This document shows, in pieces, positions 1 through 49,981 of a stretch of 64,000 bases of DNA (position 1 is the stretch's first letter; each line of letters opens with the position of its first letter). The position numbers and the translations under genes were made by a program. Origin of the DNA: an uncultured bacterium (GTDB taxonomy: Bacteria; Acidobacteriota; HRBIN11; JAKEFK01); contig CAVZQN010000004.1 in the NCBI GenBank assembly GCA_963777505.1, positions 1,728,001 to 1,792,000 on the forward strand, written 5' to 3'. The notes under the pieces were generated by a model. It saw only the letters and a program-made list of their open reading frames with translations, searched no databases and was not told where the DNA came from.

Positions 1-1229
1 CGCGCTTTACACGTCCCGTTCGAGTGTTAATTGAGGGAACTACTGAAATGGCACGCGGGAACCTTCAGCACAGAATCAGTGAAGTTTACAGGGACGAATT
101 TTCACAGCTTGTGCATGCGTTTAACGCTATGGCGGCTTCACTCGACGCCCAGCAGCAGGCTCTTGAACAAAGACGACGGTACATCGAAAACATCTTGAAC
201 AACATTACTACAGCCGTAATATCTATTAATAATACTATGAATGTAACAACGATTAATCCGGCTGCCAATCAAATGTTTGGCGTCGATTCCGATTTCAAAG
301 GGCCTATTCAGGAATTGACAGCAACCAAGGAGGATTGGCAGGAAATTCAAAAAGTGCTTGAAGCGTTTGCAAAAAGTCCGGATCGTTATCAGGTTAAAGA
401 AGTCTCATTATTCCTCACAAATAAGGAGATTAACTACCGGCTTATTTATGTTCCACTATTTGATGAGGAACAATGGACAGGCGCTCTCATTTTAGTTGAA
501 GACACATCGGACATTATCCGTTCCAACCGGCTTTCTGCATGGGCAGAAATGGCAAGACGTGTTGCGCATGAAGTTAAGAATCCGCTGACTCCGATTCAGC
601 TTGCAGTAGAACATTTAATGCGAGTTTGGGAAGATCGGAATCCGAATTTCGAAGCCGTGTTGAAAAGCTGCAGCGATGCAATTTTGCGACAGGTAAAAGC
701 GCTGCGCAGACTTGTCTCTGACTTTTCGCAGTACGGAAAACCATCCATTATTGAACGAGCGGAAATTAGGCTCGATGATTTTCTGCGAGATCTGGCAATG
801 AGCTATGGAATCCACCTGCCGGAGGGAGTTCGAATAGAAACTCAAATCGAAAGCGATTTGCCAGCGGTGCGCGTTGATACTGAAAAATTGCGCGGAGCAT
901 TGATGAATATTATTGAAAATGGTTTACAGGCAATGAATGCGAAAGGGGAAATTTTGTTGCAAGCGGAGCGGGGTGACAATGGATTTGTGCGAATTCGCGT
1001 CCATGATTCCGGGCAAGGTGTACCGGCTGAACTTTTGCCACGGCTGTTTGAACCATACTTTTCAACAAAAACCGGAGGGACAGGTCTTGGTCTCCCCATT
1101 GCTCGCAAAAATATTGAGGAACAGGGCGGCAAGATCGAAGTTCACAGTAAACAGGGTGAAGGAACTACAGTAACAATCATGCTTCCCGAAGCTCGTGTCA
1201 CAGAAATCTCACCGGCAATCAAAGCGTAA
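1..1229 (+). CDS. NtrY-like sensor histidine kinase (HAMP-PAS-HisKA-HATPase), 5' end outside window
   Basis: AHEVKNPLTPI H-box, NIIENG N-box, DSGQG, FEPYFSTK and GTGLGL motifs; reading frame open to window edge. Confidence 0.9.
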   Translation, partial: RFTRPVRVLIEGTTEMARGNLQHRISEVYRDEFSQLVHAFNAMAASLDAQQQALEQRRRYIENILNNITTAVISINNTMNVTTINPAANQMFGVDSDFKGPIQELTATKEDWQEIQKVLEAFAKSPDRYQVKEVSLFLTNKEINYRLIYVPLFDEEQWTGALILVEDTSDIIRSNRLSAWAEMARRVAHEVKNPLTPIQLAVEHLMRVWEDRNPNFEAVLKSCSDAILRQVKALRRLVSDFSQYGKPSIIERAEIRLDDFLRDLAMSYGIHLPEGVRIETQIESDLPAVRVDTEKLRGALMNIIENGLQAMNAKGEILLQAERGDNGFVRIRVHDSGQGVPAELLPRLFEPYFSTKTGGTGLGLPIARKNIEEQGGKIEVHSKQGEGTTVTIMLPEARVTEISPAIKA

Positions 1230-1231
1230 AT

Positions 1232-1921
1232 CTATTTGAAAACAAGATGCGCTACATAGGATTCCAAATTCCAATAGATGATCGCAAGTGCTGTCAGATC
1301 GAACGCAGCATGAGCAAACATTAACATCCAGATTTCACGAGTGATCGCAAAGATGCTTCCAAATAGAAGACCCACGATTGTAGCTTGTTGTGTTCCGGGG
1401 AGACCCTGGACATGGTAGTGAGCGAGACCGAACAATACGGATGTGATCAGGACGATCAATATTTTTGCAACCAATCCGGTTCCGAATAGTTTGCCAAGTC
1501 GCTCGAATAAATAGCCGCGGAAGATGGTTTCTTCGCCGAAACCGGCGCCAATAATCATCGAGTACAGCATGCCGGGAATCGCAGCCCGGTTTCCAACAAG
1601 ATAGTGATACGCTTGATTTATTGGATCCGCACCCAGCAAAGGCATCACGATTATTTTCATCAAAAATTTTAATGCGACACCAAAAACGATTCCTACAGCA
1701 ATCGTCACTATCCAGTTTTTTGGCCGAGTGTAACCGATTTCTCGCCATGGAGTGTCAGAACGCCAGACCCAGAGTAGTGCCAGCATCGCGCTAAGAGGCG
1801 CGATGAGAGCATTGCCAGCCAGGATCAAAATCATTGCTAGAATTCCGATCGGGCCGAATCCGCGTAAAGCCTCCGCGAAACGATCAACGGATTTTGTTAT
1901 GCCTGGACTACTCAAGACCAC
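1232..1921 (-). CDS. CPBP (CAAX/Abi) family intramembrane glutamic endopeptidase
   Basis: EETIFRGY, FGLAH and HAAFD motifs; multiple hydrophobic helices. Confidence 0.88.
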   Translation of the reverse strand: MVLSSPGITKSVDRFAEALRGFGPIGILAMILILAGNALIAPLSAMLALLWVWRSDTPWREIGYTRPKNWIVTIAVGIVFGVALKFLMKIIVMPLLGADPINQAYHYLVGNRAAIPGMLYSMIIGAGFGEETIFRGYLFERLGKLFGTGLVAKILIVLITSVLFGLAHYHVQGLPGTQQATIVGLLFGSIFAITREIWMLMFAHAAFDLTALAIIYWNLESYVAHLVFK

Positions 1922-2096
1922 TCCTTCTACTAAATACGATTTTTCCTGAGGATTCGTTTTCGACGATCTACTTGTAAACGTTGTTCGTTGCGATCGCGTA
2001 CGACAAACGGATGACGGTGAGTGTCAGATGGAACGGTTGCGCGATATTAGGATCTAACGCAAAACGGAGTGAAAGTTGCGCTAGGAGATGAAGATT

Positions 2097-2912
2097 CTAA
2101 CCTTCTGCAAATTTTCGCAAGCGCTGATTGAAGCCTGGTGCATCATCCCAAAAAGGTGCATGTCCAGCGTTAGGCATCATATGAATCTGAGCATGCGCAA
2201 TCGCAGCTTTTTGTTGGTCGACAACGATTGATTTGAGAATCCGATCGTTTTCTCCAAATGTGATCAGCACCGGTTTGCGAATGTTCTTCAGAAGATCATC
2301 ATTGTCCACGGATCGTGAGAACAATGCTTGACGGACATACGAGGGCACAGAAACATTGAAGCCTAGCATCAGGTAAAGATCTTCGGCGGAAGGTTCTTGA
2401 ACAAAGCAAAGTCGCAATAATGACTGCAAGCTTTGTACGTTTTCTGAAACATCTGTCGAAAAGAAGCCTGGCACAAGATTGATAAACTCAGGGGTAATCA
2501 CTGACATTGCTTCAGCACTGCCGAGTTTCGTTATGCCGGAAACAAAGTGAATTCCGTTAATGGCATCCTCTCCGTAATGCCGGATGTAGTCCAGAATTAC
2601 AAAAGGCCCGTAGGACCAGCCACTGAGAATTGGATGATCCAGACCTAGAGATTTAATAACAGCATTGACATCGTCAGCCCACAGTTTAGAGTCCGCGTAG
2701 GCTTCGGAGGGTTTATCTGAGAGTCCATGACCGCGCATATCGATCGCAACAAGCCGATGATCACTGGCCAGATCTGAGTTCAATTGCCGATTCCATGTGA
2801 GCCAACATTGCGAAAAGCCATGAATGAAAAGAATTGGTTGACCTTTCGAGTTGCCAGTCTCAACCACATGGAGATTTACACCGCCCCCGCCTAATACTTT
2901 ATGGTGCTCCAT
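2097..2912 (-). CDS. Alpha/beta hydrolase (non-heme haloperoxidase/esterase-like)
   Basis: HGF oxyanion motif, GWSYG nucleophile elbow, C-terminal AGH; ATG at 2912 follows an AAGGAG RBS. Confidence 0.9.
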   Translation of the reverse strand: MEHHKVLGGGGVNLHVVETGNSKGQPILFIHGFSQCWLTWNRQLNSDLASDHRLVAIDMRGHGLSDKPSEAYADSKLWADDVNAVIKSLGLDHPILSGWSYGPFVILDYIRHYGEDAINGIHFVSGITKLGSAEAMSVITPEFINLVPGFFSTDVSENVQSLQSLLRLCFVQEPSAEDLYLMLGFNVSVPSYVRQALFSRSVDNDDLLKNIRKPVLITFGENDRILKSIVVDQQKAAIAHAQIHMMPNAGHAPFWDDAPGFNQRLRKFAEG

Positions 2913-2991
2913 TATGTTCTCCTTAATCAACGCATCATTGAATACACTTATTAACAATGACGTTTACAAAAGGAAGTCAACCGAGGTCAGC

Positions 2992-3474
2992 CTATTTTTT
3001 TAGTTGTTTCGCTAGCTGAACGAGTTGATCGAGGCATTGTGACCAACCTTCGTGAAAGCCCATCTTCTCGTGCGTTTTGCGATCTGCTTCATCTTTGTGA
3101 AGAGCACGCGCAGTGTACTTAGTTCCGCCTTCATGATCTTCAAGAGTTAAGACTGCTGTAAAAAATGGCTTAAGGGAAGGACGGTATCCTGGCGCCAGTG
3201 CATCAGTCCAAACCATCTTTTCATTCTTGATGACCTCGAGAAAACAACCGGCATTTGGAAAGTCCTGACCTTCGGGTGAGCGCATCACTGTGCGGAAGAT
3301 TCCACCCGGACGAAGATCGATTTCGCAATCCACAGTTGTCCATGGCGCAGGTGCAAACCACTTCATGAGATGTTCAGGCTCCGTCCAAACTTTCCAGACA
3401 AGTTCGCGTGGTACATCAATTGTGCGCGTTAAAATGAGATCCAGATTTTCGTCGTAATTTTTATCATTTGGCAT
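2992..3474 (-). CDS. SRPBCC/Aha1-like (START fold) ligand-binding protein
   Basis: [29 protein letters not shown] and C-terminal GW..CLDQL pattern; coupled to upstream ArsR. Confidence 0.9.
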
Positions 3475-3814
3475 ATTTTTTCTCCTTTCCGTGTAGTTTT
3501 CTCAGGTAGTCATCCATTTGATCGAACTGCTTTTCCCAAACTGCGCGTTGATCTGCAATCCAGTGTTCCGCGTTAACAAGCGATTTTGGAGTGAGTTCAC
3601 AAGTTCGTACTCTTCCTTTTTTTGTTGATCGAACTAAGCCAGTACCTTCGAGCACTTTTAAGTGCTGTACAAATGAGGGAAGCGCCATATTAAACGGCTT
3701 GGCTAATGTACTGACTGATTTTGGCCCGCGACTTAGCTGTTGCAGCACCTTCCTGCGGGTCTGATCAGCCAACGCACGAAAAACATGATCAAGGGTTCCA
3801 CTTTGGTTAGGCAT
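3464..3814 (-). CDS. ArsR/SmtB family transcriptional regulator
   Basis: [13 protein letters not shown]...[12 protein letters not shown]...KKGRVR winged-HTH pattern; typical ArsR-SRPBCC pair. Confidence 0.92.
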
Positions 3815-3861
3815 ATTCCTAAGTATAAGTTTTTAAATACTTAGGTCAATGCCTAAGTATT
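3807..3861 (-). promoter_or_regulatory. Sigma70-like promoter and two operator palindromes of the arsR-SRPBCC operon
   Basis: Perfect IR AATACTTAGG-N6-CCTAAGTATT (3836-3861); second partial copy TTAGG-N6-CCTAAGTAT (3807-3826) over the start codon; minus-strand TTGACC (3849-3844) and TATACT (3827-3822). Confidence 0.75.
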
Positions 3862-3903
3862 GAAGTTGGGGGATCTGGAATTTTGATTTAGCCTGTAGCA
3901 TAG

Positions 3904-4072
3904 AACAGGAGACAGTCAGTATGCATGGTAGTGTAGTTTGCAGTGTGCTGAATAACTTGTTGAATGTGCTGGGCTCAATTGTGCTGTGAAGGAATCGAAC
4001 CTTCCGGACTGCCCACCGTCCGACCGCGGAATTAACCCAAACCGCGGGGGCACACTCGCTCTGCCTCCTGTT
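3904..4072 (-). ncRNA. Candidate structured RNA directly 3' of the DIP1984-family gene
   Basis: Minus strand: 12-bp terminal stem AACAGGAGGCAG/CTGTCTCCTGTT; hairpins CCGCGG/CCGCGG and CGGAC/GTCCG; T-arm GAAGG-TTCGATT-CCTTC; three CAGCACA repeats. Confidence 0.65.
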
Positions 4073-4076
4073 ACAC

Positions 4077-4538
4077 TTAAAAATGATCGATATCAATATC
4101 CCAATTTGCAGATTGAATTTCTGCATTGACGTCGCGGATTTTTTTCGCTAAGTCATCAGCCTCCTTCTGGAGAGCTGAAACATCAACTGTTTTAATCCAA
4201 CGGATTTCTTTTACTCCATAACGTTCTGGAGGCTTTGTGGCAGAATTGGCGGCCGATTGCACTAAACTGTGACGGTAAGTTAAGCTATCCCGTTCAGCTA
4301 AGGCAGCTGTCAGGGATCGATTTTTGTTCGTGTGACCGCGCAGATTTGCTTCATTAATCGAAAGAATCAGAATTCGAAGCTGTTCAATTATAGCAATCGA
4401 TTGTTTTAATAAATCAATCGGATTTTCTGAAGGCTTTTCGCCTTCTTGTACTACCGTATTCTTGCTAATTCGATCTTTTAACGATTCTAACTTCTTCTGA
4501 ATATCGGCTCTCAGCAAAAGCGCTTCAGCAAGTTTCAT
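4077..4538 (-). CDS. DIP1984 family protein (function unknown, helical/coiled-coil)
   Basis: Family-typical N-terminus MKLAEALLLRADIQKKL, VQEGEKPSENP and C-terminal IQSANW; AGGAG RBS. Confidence 0.85.
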   Translation of the reverse strand: MKLAEALLLRADIQKKLESLKDRISKNTVVQEGEKPSENPIDLLKQSIAIIEQLRILILSINEANLRGHTNKNRSLTAALAERDSLTYRHSLVQSAANSATKPPERYGVKEIRWIKTVDVSALQKEADDLAKKIRDVNAEIQSANWDIDIDHF

Positions 4539-4583
4539 TGAACCTTCTCCTAATATAACTTTGAGCCTTTGCGGTTAAATCTC

Positions 4584-5552
4584 TCACGGTAGCAGCAGAA
4601 TTTTTCCGCTGGAGGCACGGCTTTCAAGGCGGCGATGGGCATCGGCAGCTTGAGCTAAGGGAAATGTGGAATCAAGATGGAGTTTTACTACGCCGGATTG
4701 AATCCAATCAAATAATTCATTTGTGCGTTGCATCAATTCTTCACGTGTTAGCATGTAGTGAGCGAGTGAAGGTCGTGTTAAAAACAAGGAGCCTTTTTGC
4801 GCAAGAGTAGAAGGATTCAACGGTGGAACAGGACCGCTGGACTGTCCAAATAAAACCAGAATTCCACGGGGTCTCAAACAATCCAAACTTTTTTCATATG
4901 TCGTTTTCCCAACAGAGTCATATACTGCAGCCACGCCGCTTCCTCGTGTAATTTCCTTCGTTTGTTCGAGAAAATCTGATTTTGTATAAAGGATTACTTC
5001 GTTCGCGCCGGCCTCTTTTGCTTTCTTAGCTTTTTCTTCCGTAGAAACAGTTCCGATTACAAAAGCTCCAAGATGTTTTGCGATCTGGCACATCAACAAT
5101 CCCACACCGCCGGCAGCCGCATGAATTAAGATGGGATCTCCTTTTTTTACTTCATATGTACTTCGAAGCAAATAATGTGCTGTTAATCCTTGAAGCATTG
5201 CAGTTGCTGCTTCTTGATCTGAAAGCCACTCTGGCAGGCGAACTAATTTCCAGGCTGGCATCACTGAAGATTCGGCATAGCTTGCTGCTCCCATTGCATA
5301 CGCAACACGATCGCCAGTTTTTACTTCCGTAACTTCCGTTCCTACGGACTCAACAACGCCCGCACCTTCCGTTCCAGGAATAAATGGCAAGGGTAATGGA
5401 TAGAGTCCTGTGCGATGGTAGACATCGATAAAGTTGACCCCTGATGCTTCCAATCGCACAAGGGCTTGTCCTTTTGATGGTTGAGGAGTGGGTGCTTCGC
5501 GCAGCTGCAAAACTTCTGGCCCGCCATGTTGTTCAACTCGAATCGCTTTCAT
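4584..5552 (-). CDS. qor: NADPH:quinone oxidoreductase (zeta-crystallin/MDR family)
   Basis: GGPEVL, GVNFIDVYHRTGLY, AAAGGVG, LFGQSSG and KGSLFLTRPSL motifs. Confidence 0.92.
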   Translation of the reverse strand: MKAIRVEQHGGPEVLQLREAPTPQPSKGQALVRLEASGVNFIDVYHRTGLYPLPLPFIPGTEGAGVVESVGTEVTEVKTGDRVAYAMGAASYAESSVMPAWKLVRLPEWLSDQEAATAMLQGLTAHYLLRSTYEVKKGDPILIHAAAGGVGLLMCQIAKHLGAFVIGTVSTEEKAKKAKEAGANEVILYTKSDFLEQTKEITRGSGVAAVYDSVGKTTYEKSLDCLRPRGILVLFGQSSGPVPPLNPSTLAQKGSLFLTRPSLAHYMLTREELMQRTNELFDWIQSGVVKLHLDSTFPLAQAADAHRRLESRASSGKILLLP

Positions 5553-8500
5553 ACATTTTCCTCATAATCTTTAGAAGGTTCGGCAGGTGAAGCCTGATCT
5601 CCCATCTGGTTAATGCCATTTTTCACATAGGATGAACCACGAATCATTTTCGCCTGTCTTTTGTATTCGGCGGCCAGCGTTGCAATTTGAATGTGATCCG
5701 TAAGATCCTTTTCTTCATTCGTCAAACATGCGATCGAAATTGACATCAATGGAAACTTTCGCCATTCGCCATAGCGATCTTCATTTTCGATATAACCACG
5801 TTCACGATCTTCTCTGCGATAGTAAAACGGAATGATGGCATCGAATTGTGCAATGATCTGTCCGCAAAGTTCATCCGATTTTTCTGGAGATGTTATGAAA
5901 ATAAAATCATCTCCTGCGACATGCCCTGCAAAGTCGCCCGGATTCCCACTGCGAAGGATGGTATCGCGAATAATATCTCCTGTCTGGCGGACAACACCGT
6001 CAGCTTTTGCATACCCATACGTATCGTTGTATGACTTCAGGTGATCGATGTCCAGATAACAACAGGCAAATTTTTTCTGCATGGATAACAACCGGCTGAT
6101 TTCTTTTTCAATCGCAGCGCTTCCTGGCAATTTCGTTGTTGGGCTCGCATGCAATTCTTCTTCCGTTCTTCGAAGGATGCTTTCAATGCGAGCGCCGAGT
6201 TCTGTTGTATCGAAAGGTTTAACGAGATAGTCTGCGCCGCCTGCGCGAAGCGCTCTGACTTTATCTTCTGTTTGTCCGCGCGCGGTGAGAAAAACAATTG
6301 GGATTCGAGAAAGGATAATATCTGCTTTTAAAGTTTCCGCGACTTCAAATCCACTGCGATCAGGCAGCATCAGATCAAGCAAAATAAGATCGGGAGTGAA
6401 TCGTCTTAAGTGTTCAAACGCTTCGCGTCCGCTTCCGGCTTCTAAAACGCGATACCGTTCGAATTCTAAGACTTCCCGGCAAATCATTCTTAAATTTGCG
6501 TCATCATCAACGACCAGCACACATTTTTTCTGATCACCGCCATACATCTTCATGAGTGCTTCAGGTAGAAGTTGTACAAACTGATGAGCATCAATCGGTT
6601 TGGTTCCCATCATGACGTTGCCTCTTGGTCTGATCCTTGCAGGGTTCTGTGAGAAGACAACGATTGGCACTCTTTCCGTTTCGGCATCATGTTCAAGAAA
6701 ATCAATAAAGCCTTCATCGATGTTTTGGTCTGCATCCAGGTCTGCAACGATTAGATGAGGAATGCGTTCACGCAATGATGTTTGCGCTTCTTCGATTGTT
6801 CGTGCAATGGTGACGCGGAAGCGGCGTTCCATTAGAATTCCTTTTAATGCATAGGCTGCGGATTCATCGCCACTGACAACAAGACCATCCAGTTCTTCGC
6901 GGCGGCCGAGGGTCGTAAGTTCGGCGTAAATTTCAGGTGATTGTCCGCTCCTTTTTTCAACAGGGAGAATGAAAATAAATTTTGCACCTTTGCCAGGTGT
7001 GCTTTCAACCCAAATCTTTCCGCGATGCGCTTCAATGATGCTGCGGCTGATCGCAAGTCCCAGTCCGGTGCCTCCTGGACCCGCTGATGGATAAGGCTGT
7101 GTATATTTATCAAAAATGCGATCCAATTCTTCCGGCCGTATTCCTGGACCATTATCTTTTACACTGACTCCAACTTGCGGCGGCATAATCGCGGGAACAA
7201 ATAATTCCACTTCAATCTTGGCGCCAGGCGGCGTGTACTTCACAGCATTGCTGATCAAATTGTTCAAAACCTGAATCAAACGATTTCCATCTCCGTAAAC
7301 TTGAGCCTCTGATTCCGGATGCGAAAATCGAATGTTGGCTCCTTTTTCCATCGCATACGGTTGGAAACGTTCTACTACTTCATCAACAATCCTGTTTAAC
7401 ATCACTTGACCCAGCTTGATCTCCATCCGGCCTTTTTCGAATTTCGATAGATCAAGCAAATCGCCGATTACTGTATTCAGCTTTTCGCAACTCGTTCGCG
7501 CAAGCTCCAGGTATCTTCGCTGTTTTTCACCTAATGGACCCAGCACTTCTTTGAAGACAAGATCCAATGAGCCGCGAATACTCGCAAGTGGTGTACGCAG
7601 TTCATGTGAAATAACAGACAGGAATTCGTTCCTGCGATCTTCTTGTGTTTTTTCATCAGTAACATCGCGCATCAAAACAAATGTTCCAATCTGAATTCCA
7701 TCTGTATCAAACACAGGGGAGACATGCAGTGCGAGCATTCTTTCAAACACTCGAATCTCTTCTTGTAATGCGATTTGAGAAACAAAACTTCTGCTTAAGC
7801 CTCGTGTAATGTCGTATGATGAACCCGTCAAGCTTTCTTCCAACGCTTTCACAGTCAGGTGATCTTCTCTTCGTGAAAGGTGGAGTAATTTTCTCGCGGC
7901 TTGATTAATGAGCACAACTTCGCCCTGAAGATTTACAAGCACGACCCCATCGATCATGCTGTCAATGATTGCCTTCGTACGGTTTTTTTCATCTTCAAGT
8001 CGATTGTTCTCTGCGGATACATCACGCAATGAAGCTACACAGCCCGCAAATGAGCCCTGAGTTGTAATTGCATTCAATGCAATTCGAAGCGTTCGCTCTT
8101 CAACATCAAAATCGGATTGAACCGATGAGACGGTTCCAATTGAGATATGCATCAGCATGTCGCCAATCGAAGTTTGAATTGAAGGTTCAAACAATTCGCG
8201 AAAATTTCTACCTGCAACAGCAGCTTCCGGCTGCTCCAACATTCGTGACGCGGCAGAATTCATATAAATGACACGATGTTCGTTATCCAATTCAAGGACA
8301 CCTTCAGGCATTGAGTTCAGCAAATTCAAAAAGCGCGCACGTTCCTGCAAAAGTTCTTTTGTGATTTCGCTTGCAGATGCGGCGGCAGAAGCTTCATTGT
8401 TGTGAACAGGCGTAAATTGTTCAAGGAGGGTCATTAATTTCGGAAGCAAATCCTGAATCGATTCTTTTGCGACTGCTGCGGTCGCTCCGGAGTCGATCGC

Positions 8501-8776
8501 TCTTTTTAATTCGGCAGGGGAGACAGCGCTGACCGCAATCAGTGGAAGGCGCGCAAATTCAGCATCTTCGCGAACGTATTGGCAAAAACGGAAGCCATCG
8601 ATTTTTGGAAGAACCAGATCAAGAAGAACTGCATCTGGCTTTTTTTCCCGCATTCTCTGCAGACCTTCCATTCCATCTGCAGCTTTATATACATCATGAC
8701 CAGCCTCGCGAAGGCCATCTTCCAGCTGTTGAAGAATTAGCCGGTCATTATCAATGATCAGCAGGCGCAGTCCCAT
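5549..8776 (-). CDS. Hybrid signalling protein REC-PAS-PAS-HisKA-HATPase-REC(degenerate)-REC-GGDEF-like
   Basis: LLDLVLPKIDG; SHELRTPL; NLISNAVKY; GTGLGL; LLDLMLPDRSG; C-terminal DIDHLKSYNDTYG...AGDDF. Confidence 0.88.
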   Translation of the reverse strand: MGLRLLIIDNDRLILQQLEDGLREAGHDVYKAADGMEGLQRMREKKPDAVLLDLVLPKIDGFRFCQYVREDAEFARLPLIAVSAVSPAELKRAIDSGATAAVAKESIQDLLPKLMTLLEQFTPVHNNEASAAASASEITKELLQERARFLNLLNSMPEGVLELDNEHRVIYMNSAASRMLEQPEAAVAGRNFRELFEPSIQTSIGDMLMHISIGTVSSVQSDFDVEERTLRIALNAITTQGSFAGCVASLRDVSAENNRLEDEKNRTKAIIDSMIDGVVLVNLQGEVVLINQAARKLLHLSRREDHLTVKALEESLTGSSYDITRGLSRSFVSQIALQEEIRVFERMLALHVSPVFDTDGIQIGTFVLMRDVTDEKTQEDRRNEFLSVISHELRTPLASIRGSLDLVFKEVLGPLGEKQRRYLELARTSCEKLNTVIGDLLDLSKFEKGRMEIKLGQVMLNRIVDEVVERFQPYAMEKGANIRFSHPESEAQVYGDGNRLIQVLNNLISNAVKYTPPGAKIEVELFVPAIMPPQVGVSVKDNGPGIRPEELDRIFDKYTQPYPSAGPGGTGLGLAISRSIIEAHRGKIWVESTPGKGAKFIFILPVEKRSGQSPEIYAELTTLGRREELDGLVVSGDESAAYALKGILMERRFRVTIARTIEEAQTSLRERIPHLIVADLDADQNIDEGFIDFLEHDAETERVPIVVFSQNPARIRPRGNVMMGTKPIDAHQFVQLLPEALMKMYGGDQKKCVLVVDDDANLRMICREVLEFERYRVLEAGSGREAFEHLRRFTPDLILLDLMLPDRSGFEVAETLKADIILSRIPIVFLTARGQTEDKVRALRAGGADYLVKPFDTTELGARIESILRRTEEELHASPTTKLPGSAAIEKEISRLLSMQKKFACCYLDIDHLKSYNDTYGYAKADGVVRQTGDIIRDTILRSGNPGDFAGHVAGDDFIFITSPEKSDELCGQIIAQFDAIIPFYYRREDRERGYIENEDRYGEWRKFPLMSISIACLTNEEKDLTDHIQIATLAAEYKRQAKMIRGSSYVKNGINQMGDQASPAEPSKDYEENV

Positions 8777-8822
8777 GTCTGCTATTTTCGCCGTAAATTG
8801 GAATCAACGCAATTTATTAATT

Positions 8823-8846
8823 GGGAGCGCGGACGTCTCGCCTGCA
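8823..8846 (-). repeat. Degenerate REP-like hairpin unit (family A)
   Basis: GGGAGCGCGGACGTCTCGCCTGCA, reverse-complement orientation relative to the 10564-10645 array. Confidence 0.6.
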
Positions 8847-8890
8847 AAAATTCTAATTCTTTTGGTGCTGTCGTCTTAGACTTGCATCAA

Positions 8891-9692
8891 CTATTCTTTG
8901 ATTTTCGTACCGCCTAAAGGCACTGACGGGATTCCCGGGTCTTGGTCGACTTTCTTCTGGAAATCCGCGCCGCCCAAGGGTATGGATGGGAATTTCGTTT
9001 CAGTAGGAAGCTTCTTCTGAAAATCTTCACCACCCAGCGGTACGGAATTAGGAAATCCGGATTCTTTTGAAATTTTGTCTTGGAAATCTTTACCTCCAAG
9101 TGGCACAGAAGGGATACCTGAATCCTGAGAGATCTTTTGCTGAAAATCTTTGCCGCCAAGAGGCACAGAAGGAATTCCCGAATCTTTCGAGATCTTGTTT
9201 TGAAAATCTCTCCCGCCCAGGGGAACAGAGGGAATGGATTTTTGTAATTCCAACTGACGGGCCGTACCTGAAGTATTCAACTCAGATGTTTTCGACGACT
9301 TCGCTTCCTGTGAAATTTTCTCTTTCACTTTTTGTGAAGTTGTATGGTCCGGATTGAGTGTTTTTAGAAGTTTCTCCCTGCTGAATGCAGAGAGTTTGTA
9401 TTCCAATTTCTCCGCAAGGCCTGCGTTTGATGTAAGCAGGTTGTACATATATTGTTTGTCTTCGGTCGAGAGGTTCTTGAACGTGTTTTCAAGATGATCG
9501 ACTCTTGCTTTGGCTGCTTTGATGTCGCCTTTCTGAACGGGTTGATTCAAAGTGTTTAGAGTCTCGGTAAGGATTTCAGTTTGTCTTTCGGCTATTTTGT
9601 TTTCATCTGCCGTGAGTTCCTGATTATTCGTTTATTTTCTGATCCATCCAGGCAGGATCGGTGGTGGGATTATTCGAGCCGATTCTAGTCAT
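8891..9692 (-). CDS. Hypothetical protein with C-terminal ~20-aa tandem repeats; 5' part apparently frameshifted
   Basis: ORF 8891-9550 has six PS(V/I)PLGG-type units; a GGAGG RBS and ATG at 9692 (MTRIGSNNPTT...) join this frame after removal of one base near 9630-9640. Confidence 0.65.
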
Positions 9693-9816
9693 TTTGTTGC
9701 CTCCTACGTCATCTGCTATCAATTCAAAAGCAGTTCAATAACAAAGACGTAGGCTGAATCGACTGAACGGCCGTATTTGGTAGGCCTTTTCCAATTGTGG
9801 GATTTCGACCTCAATG

Positions 9817-10458
9817 TCACTGCACTACAACTTTGAATGGGTAACCGCTGATTACCTCAGGCACATCGTCGGTGAATCCGGAAAGTTCAAAGATATAATT
9901 TTCCTCTTCGACGAATTTGGCTGGCATCCCAAATTGAACTGTTTTTCCAACAGGCCTAAGTTTGCTGCTTTGCCAGAGAGATTTGTCCGCATCAAGATCC
10001 TTTAGCGCGACTTGATATTCGGAAAAGCCGGTATTTTCTAGTTGCAATGTAACTGCGACATAATCGACCTCTGGAGGAAGCGGGAGGAGTTGTACTTTTC
10101 CGGACGCTCTAGTTTGAGGCGATAGACTTAACTCGACGATTTTCACATCGCCTGGGTCTTCTTGAGGTCGCTGTTGAGATGCAAGTTGTCTTTGAGCTCG
10201 CGTCAGTTTTTGGCGAACGTCAGAAAGTTCTTTTTTTGTTTCGGCTTCCGCGGACTCTTGGTTAGAAACCTGTTGCTGCAACTGTTGTTCGCGTCGTTCA
10301 AGTAAATCCCGTTCTTTTTGTAATTGTGCAATTCGATCATGCATTACCATCTGTTCACGCAGTAGATAGCCAGCTGCCACCAGCATGACCAACAGAGCGG
10401 CCGCAAGTGCCCATTGCAATGCCGATCCACGAGATTGCTTGTTAGTTGTTTCGTTCAC
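9817..10458 (-). CDS. Hypothetical membrane-anchored protein (TM helix, coiled coil, beta-rich C-terminal domain)
   Basis: WALAAALLVMLVAAGYLL TM segment; Q/E-rich coil; C-terminal beta-strand pattern. Confidence 0.7.
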   Translation of the reverse strand: MNETTNKQSRGSALQWALAAALLVMLVAAGYLLREQMVMHDRIAQLQKERDLLERREQQLQQQVSNQESAEAETKKELSDVRQKLTRAQRQLASQQRPQEDPGDVKIVELSLSPQTRASGKVQLLPLPPEVDYVAVTLQLENTGFSEYQVALKDLDADKSLWQSSKLRPVGKTVQFGMPAKFVEEENYIFELSGFTDDVPEVISGYPFKVVVQ

Positions 10459-49806: not shown

Positions 49807-49981
49807 GCCTAACGCACGGAGCTCAGCCGCACGACCTGCGCCGAAACGAAGGCAGCCGGTTGTGCTGGCTTCAGCACAACATCATAGCTGTAAACTTTTC
49901 GTTGTACAAATGGATTATAGCGGCATGCAACCGGCATGACTGAGAGAGGCAAGAGGTGTCGGCTGCAGCGATTTGTTCGAC
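49807..49981 (-). mobile_element. Integron attC site (175 bp)
   Basis: GTCGAAC ... GCTGCAGCCG ... CGGCTGAGC ... GTTAGGC with an extra base in L''; long imperfect internal stem. Confidence 0.82.

Follow-up and report, generated by a model that had tools for sequence, protein, structure and literature searches.

A fixed-length row of regularly spaced adenines in a conserved RNA downstream of DIP1984-family genes as a candidate docking track for an oligomeric protein

We analysed a stretch of 64,000 nucleotides (nt; hereafter, the window) of contig CAVZQN010000004.1 from an uncultured bacterium of the Acidobacteriota (GenBank assembly GCA_963777505.1). On the minus strand at 3904–4072 it encodes a structured RNA of about 169 nt, measured from the outer end of the closing stem to its partner. 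The RNA begins 5 nt past the stop codon of a gene of the DIP1984/DUF6847 family (4077–4538, minus strand, 153 amino acids), which is located directly upstream on the same strand. We found that an unpaired linker of 44 nt in this RNA carries six adenine-centred units spaced exactly 7 nt apart, and that adenines in such a row are kept at fixed positions in homologous RNAs. The row could be a multivalent docking track for an oligomer, with the DIP1984 protein as the most likely reader; we regard this reading as about evenly balanced between right and wrong. The RNA is predicted from DNA sequence. The related sequences are not independent, so the z-scores and permutation counts given below overstate significance.

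The linker (3927–3970, minus strand, six units) lies in the 3' half of the RNA, spans from the GCCC strand of a pseudoknot to the 3' strand of stem P2, contains no conserved base pairs and ends in a conserved ACC (3929–3927). Its spaced adenines stand at 3967, 3960, 3953, 3946, 3939 and 3932. Linkers of homologous RNAs were cut out with the pseudoknot strand and the conserved (U/C)ACC ahead of the P2 3' strand as landmarks, and were stacked without gaps. In all eight linkers of the window's type, adenine was invariant at positions 4, 11, 18, 25, 32, 39 and 42, and most other positions varied; the other invariant positions were G2, C5, C31, C38, C40, C43 and C44. When seven columns of 44 were drawn at random, a six-term progression with a step from 3 to 8 appeared in 87 of 1,000,000 draws.

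The same pattern was observed on a larger scale. A covariance model (R1) was built from 50 non-redundant RNA cores, with the window RNA among those 50, and its 74 matches gave 63 distinct linkers, 62 of them complete. Linker length was 41–45 nt in 55 of the 62, with 42 nt (28 linkers) and 44 nt (14 linkers) as the most populated classes. In the 14 distinct linkers of 44 nt, which take in distant G-tailed RNAs as well as a barely scoring Verrucomicrobial RNA, at least 85% adenine was found at exactly columns 4, 11, 18, 25, 32, 39 and 42, and all seven adenines were present in 10 of the 14. In the 28 linkers of 42 nt the same level was reached at columns 4, 10, 12, 18, 24, 31, 37 and 40, and 20 linkers had all of A4, A10, A18, A24, A31, A37 and A40. 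The Verrucomicrobial RNA (L002, only 23 bits to R1) showed a perfect 7-nt adenine series. A viral contig with a protein 27% identical (L216) had seven YAU units (Y, pyrimidine) spaced 7, 7, 8, 7, 7 and 7 nt. Across 46 linkers the autocorrelation of adenines peaked at lags of 7 and 14 nt (z 3.2 and 6.0, respectively), values that relatedness inflates.

Pooled over 50 RNAs, the unit consensus was G or U at -2 (88%), a pyrimidine at -1 (80%) and A at 0 (92%), with G in just 1% of cases at +1 and in 6% at -1. Folded alone, the linkers had a mean energy of -4.78 kcal/mol (z -0.45 against shuffles), and the window linker had -2.1. The RNAs of Campylobacter lack a T-loop motif, yet they retain a 42-nt linker with all of the adenines. 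Three metagenome contigs from public runs, 94–99% identical to the window, differed in the linker only at positions 20, 21, 35 and 37, and the conserved unit positions were untouched. Several linkers were longer: in two Paenibacillus loci (L050 and L052) they measured 63 nt, that is 42 + 21, as though three units had been inserted, and others measured 52, 59 and 68 nt.

Two further ideas on the linker were tried. Concerted evolution, with each lineage having its own word, was mostly rejected: units of the same index in different RNAs were more alike (identity 0.420) than units within one RNA (0.355), with baselines of 0.282 for composition-shuffled units and 0.311 for units of other RNAs at a different index. 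Pairing of the linker with its own upstream gene or leader was stronger than with those of others (-21.6 vs -20.0 kcal/mol; none of 5000 permutations reached the value), a difference that was confounded by G+C content and was not accepted; for the window linker and its upstream mRNA there was no excess (-16.8 vs -19.1 kcal/mol).

A preliminary description of this locus had pointed to three copies of a heptamer in the RNA, in a G-poor and probably single-stranded stretch, and had interpreted them as multivalent sites for a DIP1984 oligomer or another factor. The three copies are indeed present: TGTGCTG on the plus strand, which is CAGCACA on the minus strand, occurs at 3944–3950, 3965–3971 and 3980–3986, with the reported spacings of 21 and 15 nt. 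The degenerate CTACAC/CTACCA units said to follow them are there as well, and correspond to the final unit of the row plus the conserved ACC. The region is situated between the T-arm and the closing stems, as had been described, and is poor in G (11 G in the 89 nt that run from the T-arm through the closing stem); the consensus structure leaves the repeat stretch unpaired. The copies do not all share that single stretch. Copies 2 and 3 belong to the linker, and copy 1 lies outside it, upstream of the pseudoknot strand.

Copy 1 (3980–3986, minus strand), which can be counted as unit 0, is placed between the T-arm and the pseudoknot strand, inside a block GCACAAYUGAGCCC that is retained in those close relatives in which this region exists. 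In the other members of the family a YACA motif aligns with the block, which forms a seventh unit one base out of phase. Copy 2 (3965–3971, minus strand) is linker unit 1, with adenine 3967 at linker position 4; G2, Y3, A4 and C5 of this unit were invariant in all eight window-type linkers. Copy 3 (3944–3950, minus strand) is linker unit 4, at a distance of 21 nt, or three units, from copy 2. Its adenine 3946 (position 25) is invariant and its flanks are variable: apart from the Y-A step, no close relative has the same letters in the alignment, and in the contig X3, which is about 94% identical to the window, its first C (linker position 21) is changed to G. Copy 3 is thus not a conserved sequence even among close relatives.

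By the preliminary description, repeats that are not conserved in homologs would count against its interpretation. This was not the case: a repeated adenine-centred unit was kept at fixed positions family-wide. What is conserved, however, is not the heptamer CAGCACA but a shorter unit, (G/U)-Y-A-(not G), present seven times in total with six units exactly 7 nt apart. Judging from the alignments, the identity of seven letters in three units is a local sharpening particular to the lineage, and the conserved object is the row of Y-A steps together with its spacing. The interpretation was borne out in part. As an event in a single sequence the triple heptamer is unusual and not extreme: among 20000 dinucleotide-preserving shuffles of the 168-nt RNA, 102 had some 7-mer in three copies, as did 358 of 20000 shuffles of the 89-nt 3' segment. 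It is the homologs that give the strong signal. CAGCACA is also enriched across the whole 64-kb window, with 18 copies compared to 7.4 expected (standard deviation 2.84; none of 100 shuffles reached 18), and two copies are found on opposite strands, 11 nt apart, at 49861–49878.

The fold that encloses the linker has good comparative support. The closing stem P1 is formed by a 5' strand at 4061–4072 and a 3' strand at 3904–3915 (both minus strand; 12 pairs including one G-U), as read from the sequence and the alignment. Its inner four pairs covary in the 50 RNAs, and in the contig X3 the change of G4064 to A turned the G-U pair into A-U. The 5' strand of stem P2, AGUGUGC (4050–4056, minus strand), pairs with the 3' strand GCAUACU (3918–3924, minus strand), which is followed by GA (3917–3916) facing AGCG (4060–4057) in an internal loop. 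For each pair of alignment columns 10–14 with 239–243, both sides were changed in 18–19 of the 50 sequences. RNAalifold, run on the alignment of 50 sequences, reported only nine pairs, the inner four of P1 and five of P2, and all nine had changes on both sides. The P2 5' strand is also complementary to copies 2 and 3 in the window; given the covariation of P2, its partner as a family rule is, by the alignment, 3924–3918 and therefore not the repeats.

Hairpins P3 (4024–4047, minus strand; a 6-bp stem and a 12-nt loop) and P4 (4005–4022, minus strand) have stems that were read from single sequences. The loop of P3 is of a GGGUUAA type conserved in close relatives. The loop of P4 contributes GGGC (4014–4011) to a pseudoknot with the strand GCCC (3971–3974, minus strand), whose last C also begins copy 2. 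In alignment columns 107–110 with 161–164, 84.4% of cells were paired, and all four pairs had changes on both sides (e.g., GC 30 and AU 9 at one pair). This column-wise count was used instead of a test for complementary 4-mers, which did not discriminate since 85% of unrelated sequences matched too. A tRNA-like T-arm (3988–4004, minus strand; 5-bp stem and 7-nt UUCGAUU loop), seen in the sequence and the alignment, was paired in 86.5% of cells across the 50 RNAs. In the near-identical contig X3 it showed a compensatory change, A4002 to G with U3990 to C (A-U to G-C). The T-arm is missing from many members, the Campylobacter RNAs for example.

Taken over P1, the 7-bp P2, the T-stem and the pseudoknot between the P4 loop and GCCC, 85.5% of cells were paired, compared to 65.7% in shuffles (none of 500 as high). 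The covariation score of this counted structure was 0.615 compared to 0.263 in shuffles (again none of 500), and it fell to 0.10–0.13 when the partners were slid by 1–3 columns. The internal loop between P1 and P2 (4057–4060 and 3916–3917; alignment columns 6–9 and 244–245) had G-N-G-A on its 5' side and (C/U)UGA around its 3' side family-wide; it may hold tandem G-A pairs, a kink-turn or a loop-E-like element. In the window's subtype a second ACUGA stands directly ahead of the pseudoknot strand.

We observed a tight association of the RNA with the DIP1984 gene, a point in support of the interpretation in the preliminary description. Protein-anchored scans covered 80 loci from species genomes and 80 loci from metagenomes. 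An R1 match was found directly downstream of the DIP1984 gene, on the same strand, in 149 of the 160 loci (78 of 80 and 71 of 80, respectively). Among the 11 loci without a match, seven had at most 32 nt of DNA after the gene and one had a truncated gene; in three others (L157–L159, with 35% protein identity) the flank was present and R1 matched none of them. In the window's own genome the R1 search found a single copy, matched at 3912–4065 with 90.7 bits (E-value 2.9e-19). The gene is sporadic: of 61 related genomes, only that of the window had it above the family cut-off. A search with the RNA alone in 151 genomes of the phylum gave two matches, both directly downstream of a DIP1984 gene. 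One was the window RNA, and the other was in genome G106, where the RNA lies about 75 nt past a DIP1984 open reading frame.

The window RNA shows the features by which we recognise the family, namely a position downstream of the gene on the same strand, P1 and P2 with the covarying pseudoknot, and a linker (41–45 nt in the family, with six Y-A units about 7 nt apart and (U/C)ACC at its end) that here has 44 nt and six units. The window and its close relatives (L001 and L082–L090, 61–73% protein identity) form a subtype without tail, without the 5' GGUAG motif and the 3' GAGGGYGGG...GGGG tail of most Firmicutes-type members. Most other members (L003–L080 and many metagenome loci) carried a 5' GGUAG(C), complementary to the conserved CUACC, and a 3' tail GAGGGYGGG-N3-5-GGGG(A) with three G-tracts.

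The distribution extends to viral contigs. Seven viral loci were found by their protein; inspected by eye, four of them (L210, L212, L213 and L216) had the features of the RNA, and R1 at an E-value of 0.01 or better matched only L210 and L213. Distant DIP1984-like genes (27–28% identity) were seen in very large viral contigs (L216, 230 kb; L214, 405 kb; L215, 69 kb). After the gene of L216 comes an RNA that has GGUAG, seven YAU heptads and a G-rich tail, and in L214 and L215 another gene apparently starts downstream of the DIP1984-like gene instead. An exact 14-base block had 47 matches in viral contigs, none with the context of the RNA (at most 4 of 7 adenine positions), and these were counted as chance.

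The RNA family appears to be undescribed: we found no paper on it under the names of the protein family, and Rfam 15 has no entry for it. Against Rfam 15, the window RNA had no match above threshold (the best was tRNA-Sec with 20.3 bits against a gathering score of 47, E-value 0.68), and eight homologous loci gave nothing relevant, with one unrelated match below threshold. ARAGORN found no tRNA or tmRNA gene in positions 1–10000 of the window and none in 33 of 34 homologous loci, the exception (L080) being an unrelated upstream tRNA-Arg. A literature search under the names DIP1984 and DUF6847 returned a sole match, an Acinetobacter surveillance study, unrelated by its title. Titles also showed that members are sometimes labelled 'septicolysin' in plasmid annotations; among the matches listed under that name, none was about an RNA, by title. 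A literature search for a tRNA-like motif beside a four-helix bundle found no paper.

The DIP1984 gene was assigned by Pfam PF20935 (E-value 1.5e-45), NCBIfam NF038048 (1.3e-49) and the Protein Data Bank (PDB) entry 3kdq (2e-19). An AlphaFold2 model made with 44 homologs was a four-helix bundle with a predicted local distance difference test (pLDDT) score of 94.5. Compared with the PDB by Foldseek, its sole structural neighbour below an E-value of 0.1 was 3kdq, a crystal structure of the DIP1984/DUF6847 family available since 2009. PADLOC gave no match for the protein, and the best named cluster in the Protein Atlas (0.77) gave no lead.

The oligomeric state assumed in the preliminary description agrees with prediction. 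A co-fold of four copies reached an interface score (ipSAE) of 0.67, the median of three runs, compared to 0.17 for the best control, with at least 21% of contacts agreeing between runs and a partner pLDDT of at least 82. Among proteins of solved structure, 20 of 30 same-chain pairs reached this mark, as did 1 of 23 single chains. The co-fold supports self-association of DIP1984 as a prediction, and the four-copy pass may be a recall of 3kdq, which has four chains. In the sequences of 44 homologs from many phyla, the loop VQEGEKPSE(D/N)P (residues 31–40; window 4448–4419) was near-invariant; it is acidic and resembles a metal or catalytic site more than a patch for binding RNA. Other positions without variation include R10, R23, N62, N65, E111, R135, Q142, N145 and W146, and 12 alignment columns had at least 80% lysine or arginine.

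A strand of fixed length, unpaired and poor in G, with direct repeats at a 7-nt pitch and with both ends anchored, is what a symmetric oligomer would read. The pattern of a periodic track, together with the precedent of HutP, is the ground on which we rate a docking track with DIP1984 as the reader at the level stated at the outset. In such a scheme the RNA would be made with the DIP1984 gene or right after it. The folded core (P1, P2, P4 with the pseudoknot, and here the T-arm) would keep the linker at its fixed length. Each unit would then present a single Y-A step, to be read by one subunit or half-site of an oligomer; the co-encoded DIP1984 protein, a four-helix bundle, is the most probable candidate. 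The mode would be that of hexameric HutP, which reads XAG triplets separated by 4-nt spacers. We infer the binding of the row by a protein, the identity of this protein as DIP1984, and the stoichiometry.

Several observations weigh against this reading. The protein is not basic (median isoelectric point 6.43 and median net charge 0 in the 44 homologs), its most conserved feature is the acidic loop with Q31, E32, G33, E34, P36 and E38 invariant, which is unlike a classical RNA-binding surface, and by Foldseek its fold matches nothing of known function. The oligomer was modelled at four copies, and a tetramer is no obvious match for a row of six or seven units. The linker classes other than 44 nt are spaced by 6–8 nt and not strictly by 7, and copy 1 is out of phase with the linker series because it is 15 nt, not 14, from copy 2. 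Lastly, periodic conserved adenines can be explained equally well by contacts within the RNA.

That last point leads to an account without any protein reader, in which the adenines make tertiary contacts (A-minor, stacking, T-loop intercalation) that tie the linker to the helices of a compact pseudoknotted fold. In structured RNAs, unpaired adenines that are conserved usually mark tertiary contacts; the core with its pseudoknot is well supported; a fixed linker length suits a geometric constraint of either kind; and a protein that is not basic fits as well. On the other hand, a strict period of 7 nt would be mismatched to the geometry of an A-form helix. The row is retained when the T-arm is missing or replaced, and with or without the 5' GGUAG and the 3' G-rich tail, so that only a few constant helices are left as receptors for six or seven adenines. 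Moreover, symmetric protein partners are typically associated with a unit in direct repeats and not with motifs that occur once (PMC2425495). We consider this account rather unlikely, though likelier than the other rivals.

A docking track could also be read by another factor, such as an RNA-binding oligomer of the host, with DIP1984 acting elsewhere on the RNA or in its pathway. The evidence for a periodic unpaired track is silent on the identity of the reader, and the conserved acidic loop and neutral charge suit an enzyme or adaptor better than a protein that reads bases. However, gene and RNA occur together in many phyla and also in viral contigs, and the gene is as sporadic as described among related genomes; a host factor would therefore need to be universal. 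No further gene is constantly adjacent at the locus. Such a reader is, in our estimate, quite improbable.

We judge it very improbable that the copies of the repeat serve as alternate partners of the P2 5' strand, with the RNA toggling between registers. In the window, the P2 5' strand pairs better with copy 2 (-12.6 kcal/mol) than with its covarying partner (-9.6), and the minimum free energy structure of the single sequence adopts the pairing with copy 2. Over 50 RNAs the strand also paired better with its own linker (mean -5.91) than with other linkers (-4.93; none of 5000 permutations as low) or with its own linker shuffled (-4.96). This family-wide excess is only about 1 kcal/mol, though, and relatedness and composition may account for it. 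In the two close relatives with a changed P2 5' strand (L085 and L090), P2 is kept by compensation (-7.9 and -9.0), but the alternative pairing is lost (-3.8 and -5.6, compared to -6.1 and -5.6 for shuffled linkers), which ruled it out as a family-wide rule. The invariant letters, furthermore, are fixed adenines that do not covary with the 5' strand. Least credible of all to us is an origin of the three heptamers by chance or neutral slippage, as a functionless by-product of a low-complexity sequence rich in A and C. The exact heptamer is unconserved (copy 3 varies in every close relative and in the contig about 94% identical), concerted evolution is not strong by the unit identities given above, and three copies arose in 0.5–1.8% of shuffles. 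Yet this would account for the identity of the seven letters and not for the row, whose adenines hold their positions and their spacing from phylum to phylum; as an explanation of the entire array, chance is refuted by the adenine columns conserved in the window-type linkers and in those of 42 and 44 nt.

The reading with DIP1984 as an oligomeric reader can be carried further, to a form that we hold to be possible and somewhat doubtful. DIP1984 might polymerise along the six or seven adenine heptads on a tRNA-like pseudoknotted scaffold, one subunit or half-site per unit, and form a defined ribonucleoprotein of an undescribed kind. Gene and RNA would then make a self-contained two-part module, sporadic in bacteria and phages, with a T-arm that would hint at a connection with tRNA or the translation machinery. 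The DIP1984/DUF6847 family is widespread and without known function; one conserved RNA almost always follows its gene, and since that RNA carries a ruler of evenly spaced adenines with a fixed total length, there is a concrete hypothesis that the protein is an RNA-binding oligomer. If true, it would add a new RNA-protein pair to a short list (TRAP, HutP and CsrA) in which periodic short motifs set the stoichiometry of the complex, and would open an orphan protein family to experiment.

Downstream of the RNA on the minus strand lies a gene for an ArsR-type regulator (3464–3814, with the start at 3814); the gene neighbourhood comprises an ArsR/AHSA1 pair and a gene of quinone oxidoreductase type. 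In front of the ArsR-family gene, at 3819–3860 on the minus strand, we observed an inverted repeat of the type ATACTTAGG-N6-CCTAAGTAT with an extra copy of CTTAGG. It overlaps a promoter-like site at 3849–3822 (TTGACC, 16 nt, TATACT) and in its sequence looks like the operator of the ArsR/AHSA1 gene pair. This element probably marks the 3' limit of the unit made of the DIP1984 gene and the RNA.

Known RNAs resemble the present one in some respects. Like tRNA, tmRNA and YrlA RNAs, it has a canonical T-arm and a closing stem formed from its two ends, and tmRNA also combines a T-arm with pseudoknots. It differs from them in having no match by the gene finder, in a T-arm that is dispensable in many members, and in its partner, which is DIP1984 and not Ro/Rsr or SmpB. 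In type III toxin-antitoxin systems the RNA (ToxI-like) precedes the toxin gene and is built of direct repeats in tandem, each about 36 nt long, whereas here the units are of 7 nt, inside a folded RNA and downstream of the gene.

The preliminary description had also compared the repeats to RNAs of the CsrB/RsmZ type and to TRAP leaders. CsrB and RsmZ carry multiple GGA motifs, mostly in hairpin loops, and TRAP sites are (G/U)AG triplets present about 11 times with spacers of 2–3 nt. The common point is that many copies of a short motif engage a protein with several subunits or several sites. The likeness proved to be a loose analogy, as the GGA and (G/U)AG motifs are absent from the linker. 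Compared to CsrB/RsmZ, the units here are (G/U)-Y-A-H (H, not G) in an unpaired, G-poor linker, with no match to an Rfam small RNA; compared to TRAP, there are six or seven units 7 nt apart, and the adenine almost never precedes G.

HutP is, to our knowledge, not a helical bundle, and the present locus shows no visible antitermination context and no terminator-like site was found there. In the HutP study (PMC2425495), each of the two faces of the hexamer is described as reading three XAG triplets set apart by 4-nt spacers, with the RNA wrapping the hexamer; the sites in the hut leader of Bacillus subtilis form two groups of three, joined by a linker of 12–17 nt, inside the terminator. The two systems differ in the unit, which is XAG for HutP and has G after the adenine in about 1% of cases here, and in the arrangement, which is two groups for HutP and here six contiguous units in a stable pseudoknotted RNA at the 3' end of a gene. 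They are alike on the RNA side in their short A-centred triplets, their period of 7 nt, their total of six and their single-stranded state, and in the case of HutP it is a symmetric oligomer that reads them.

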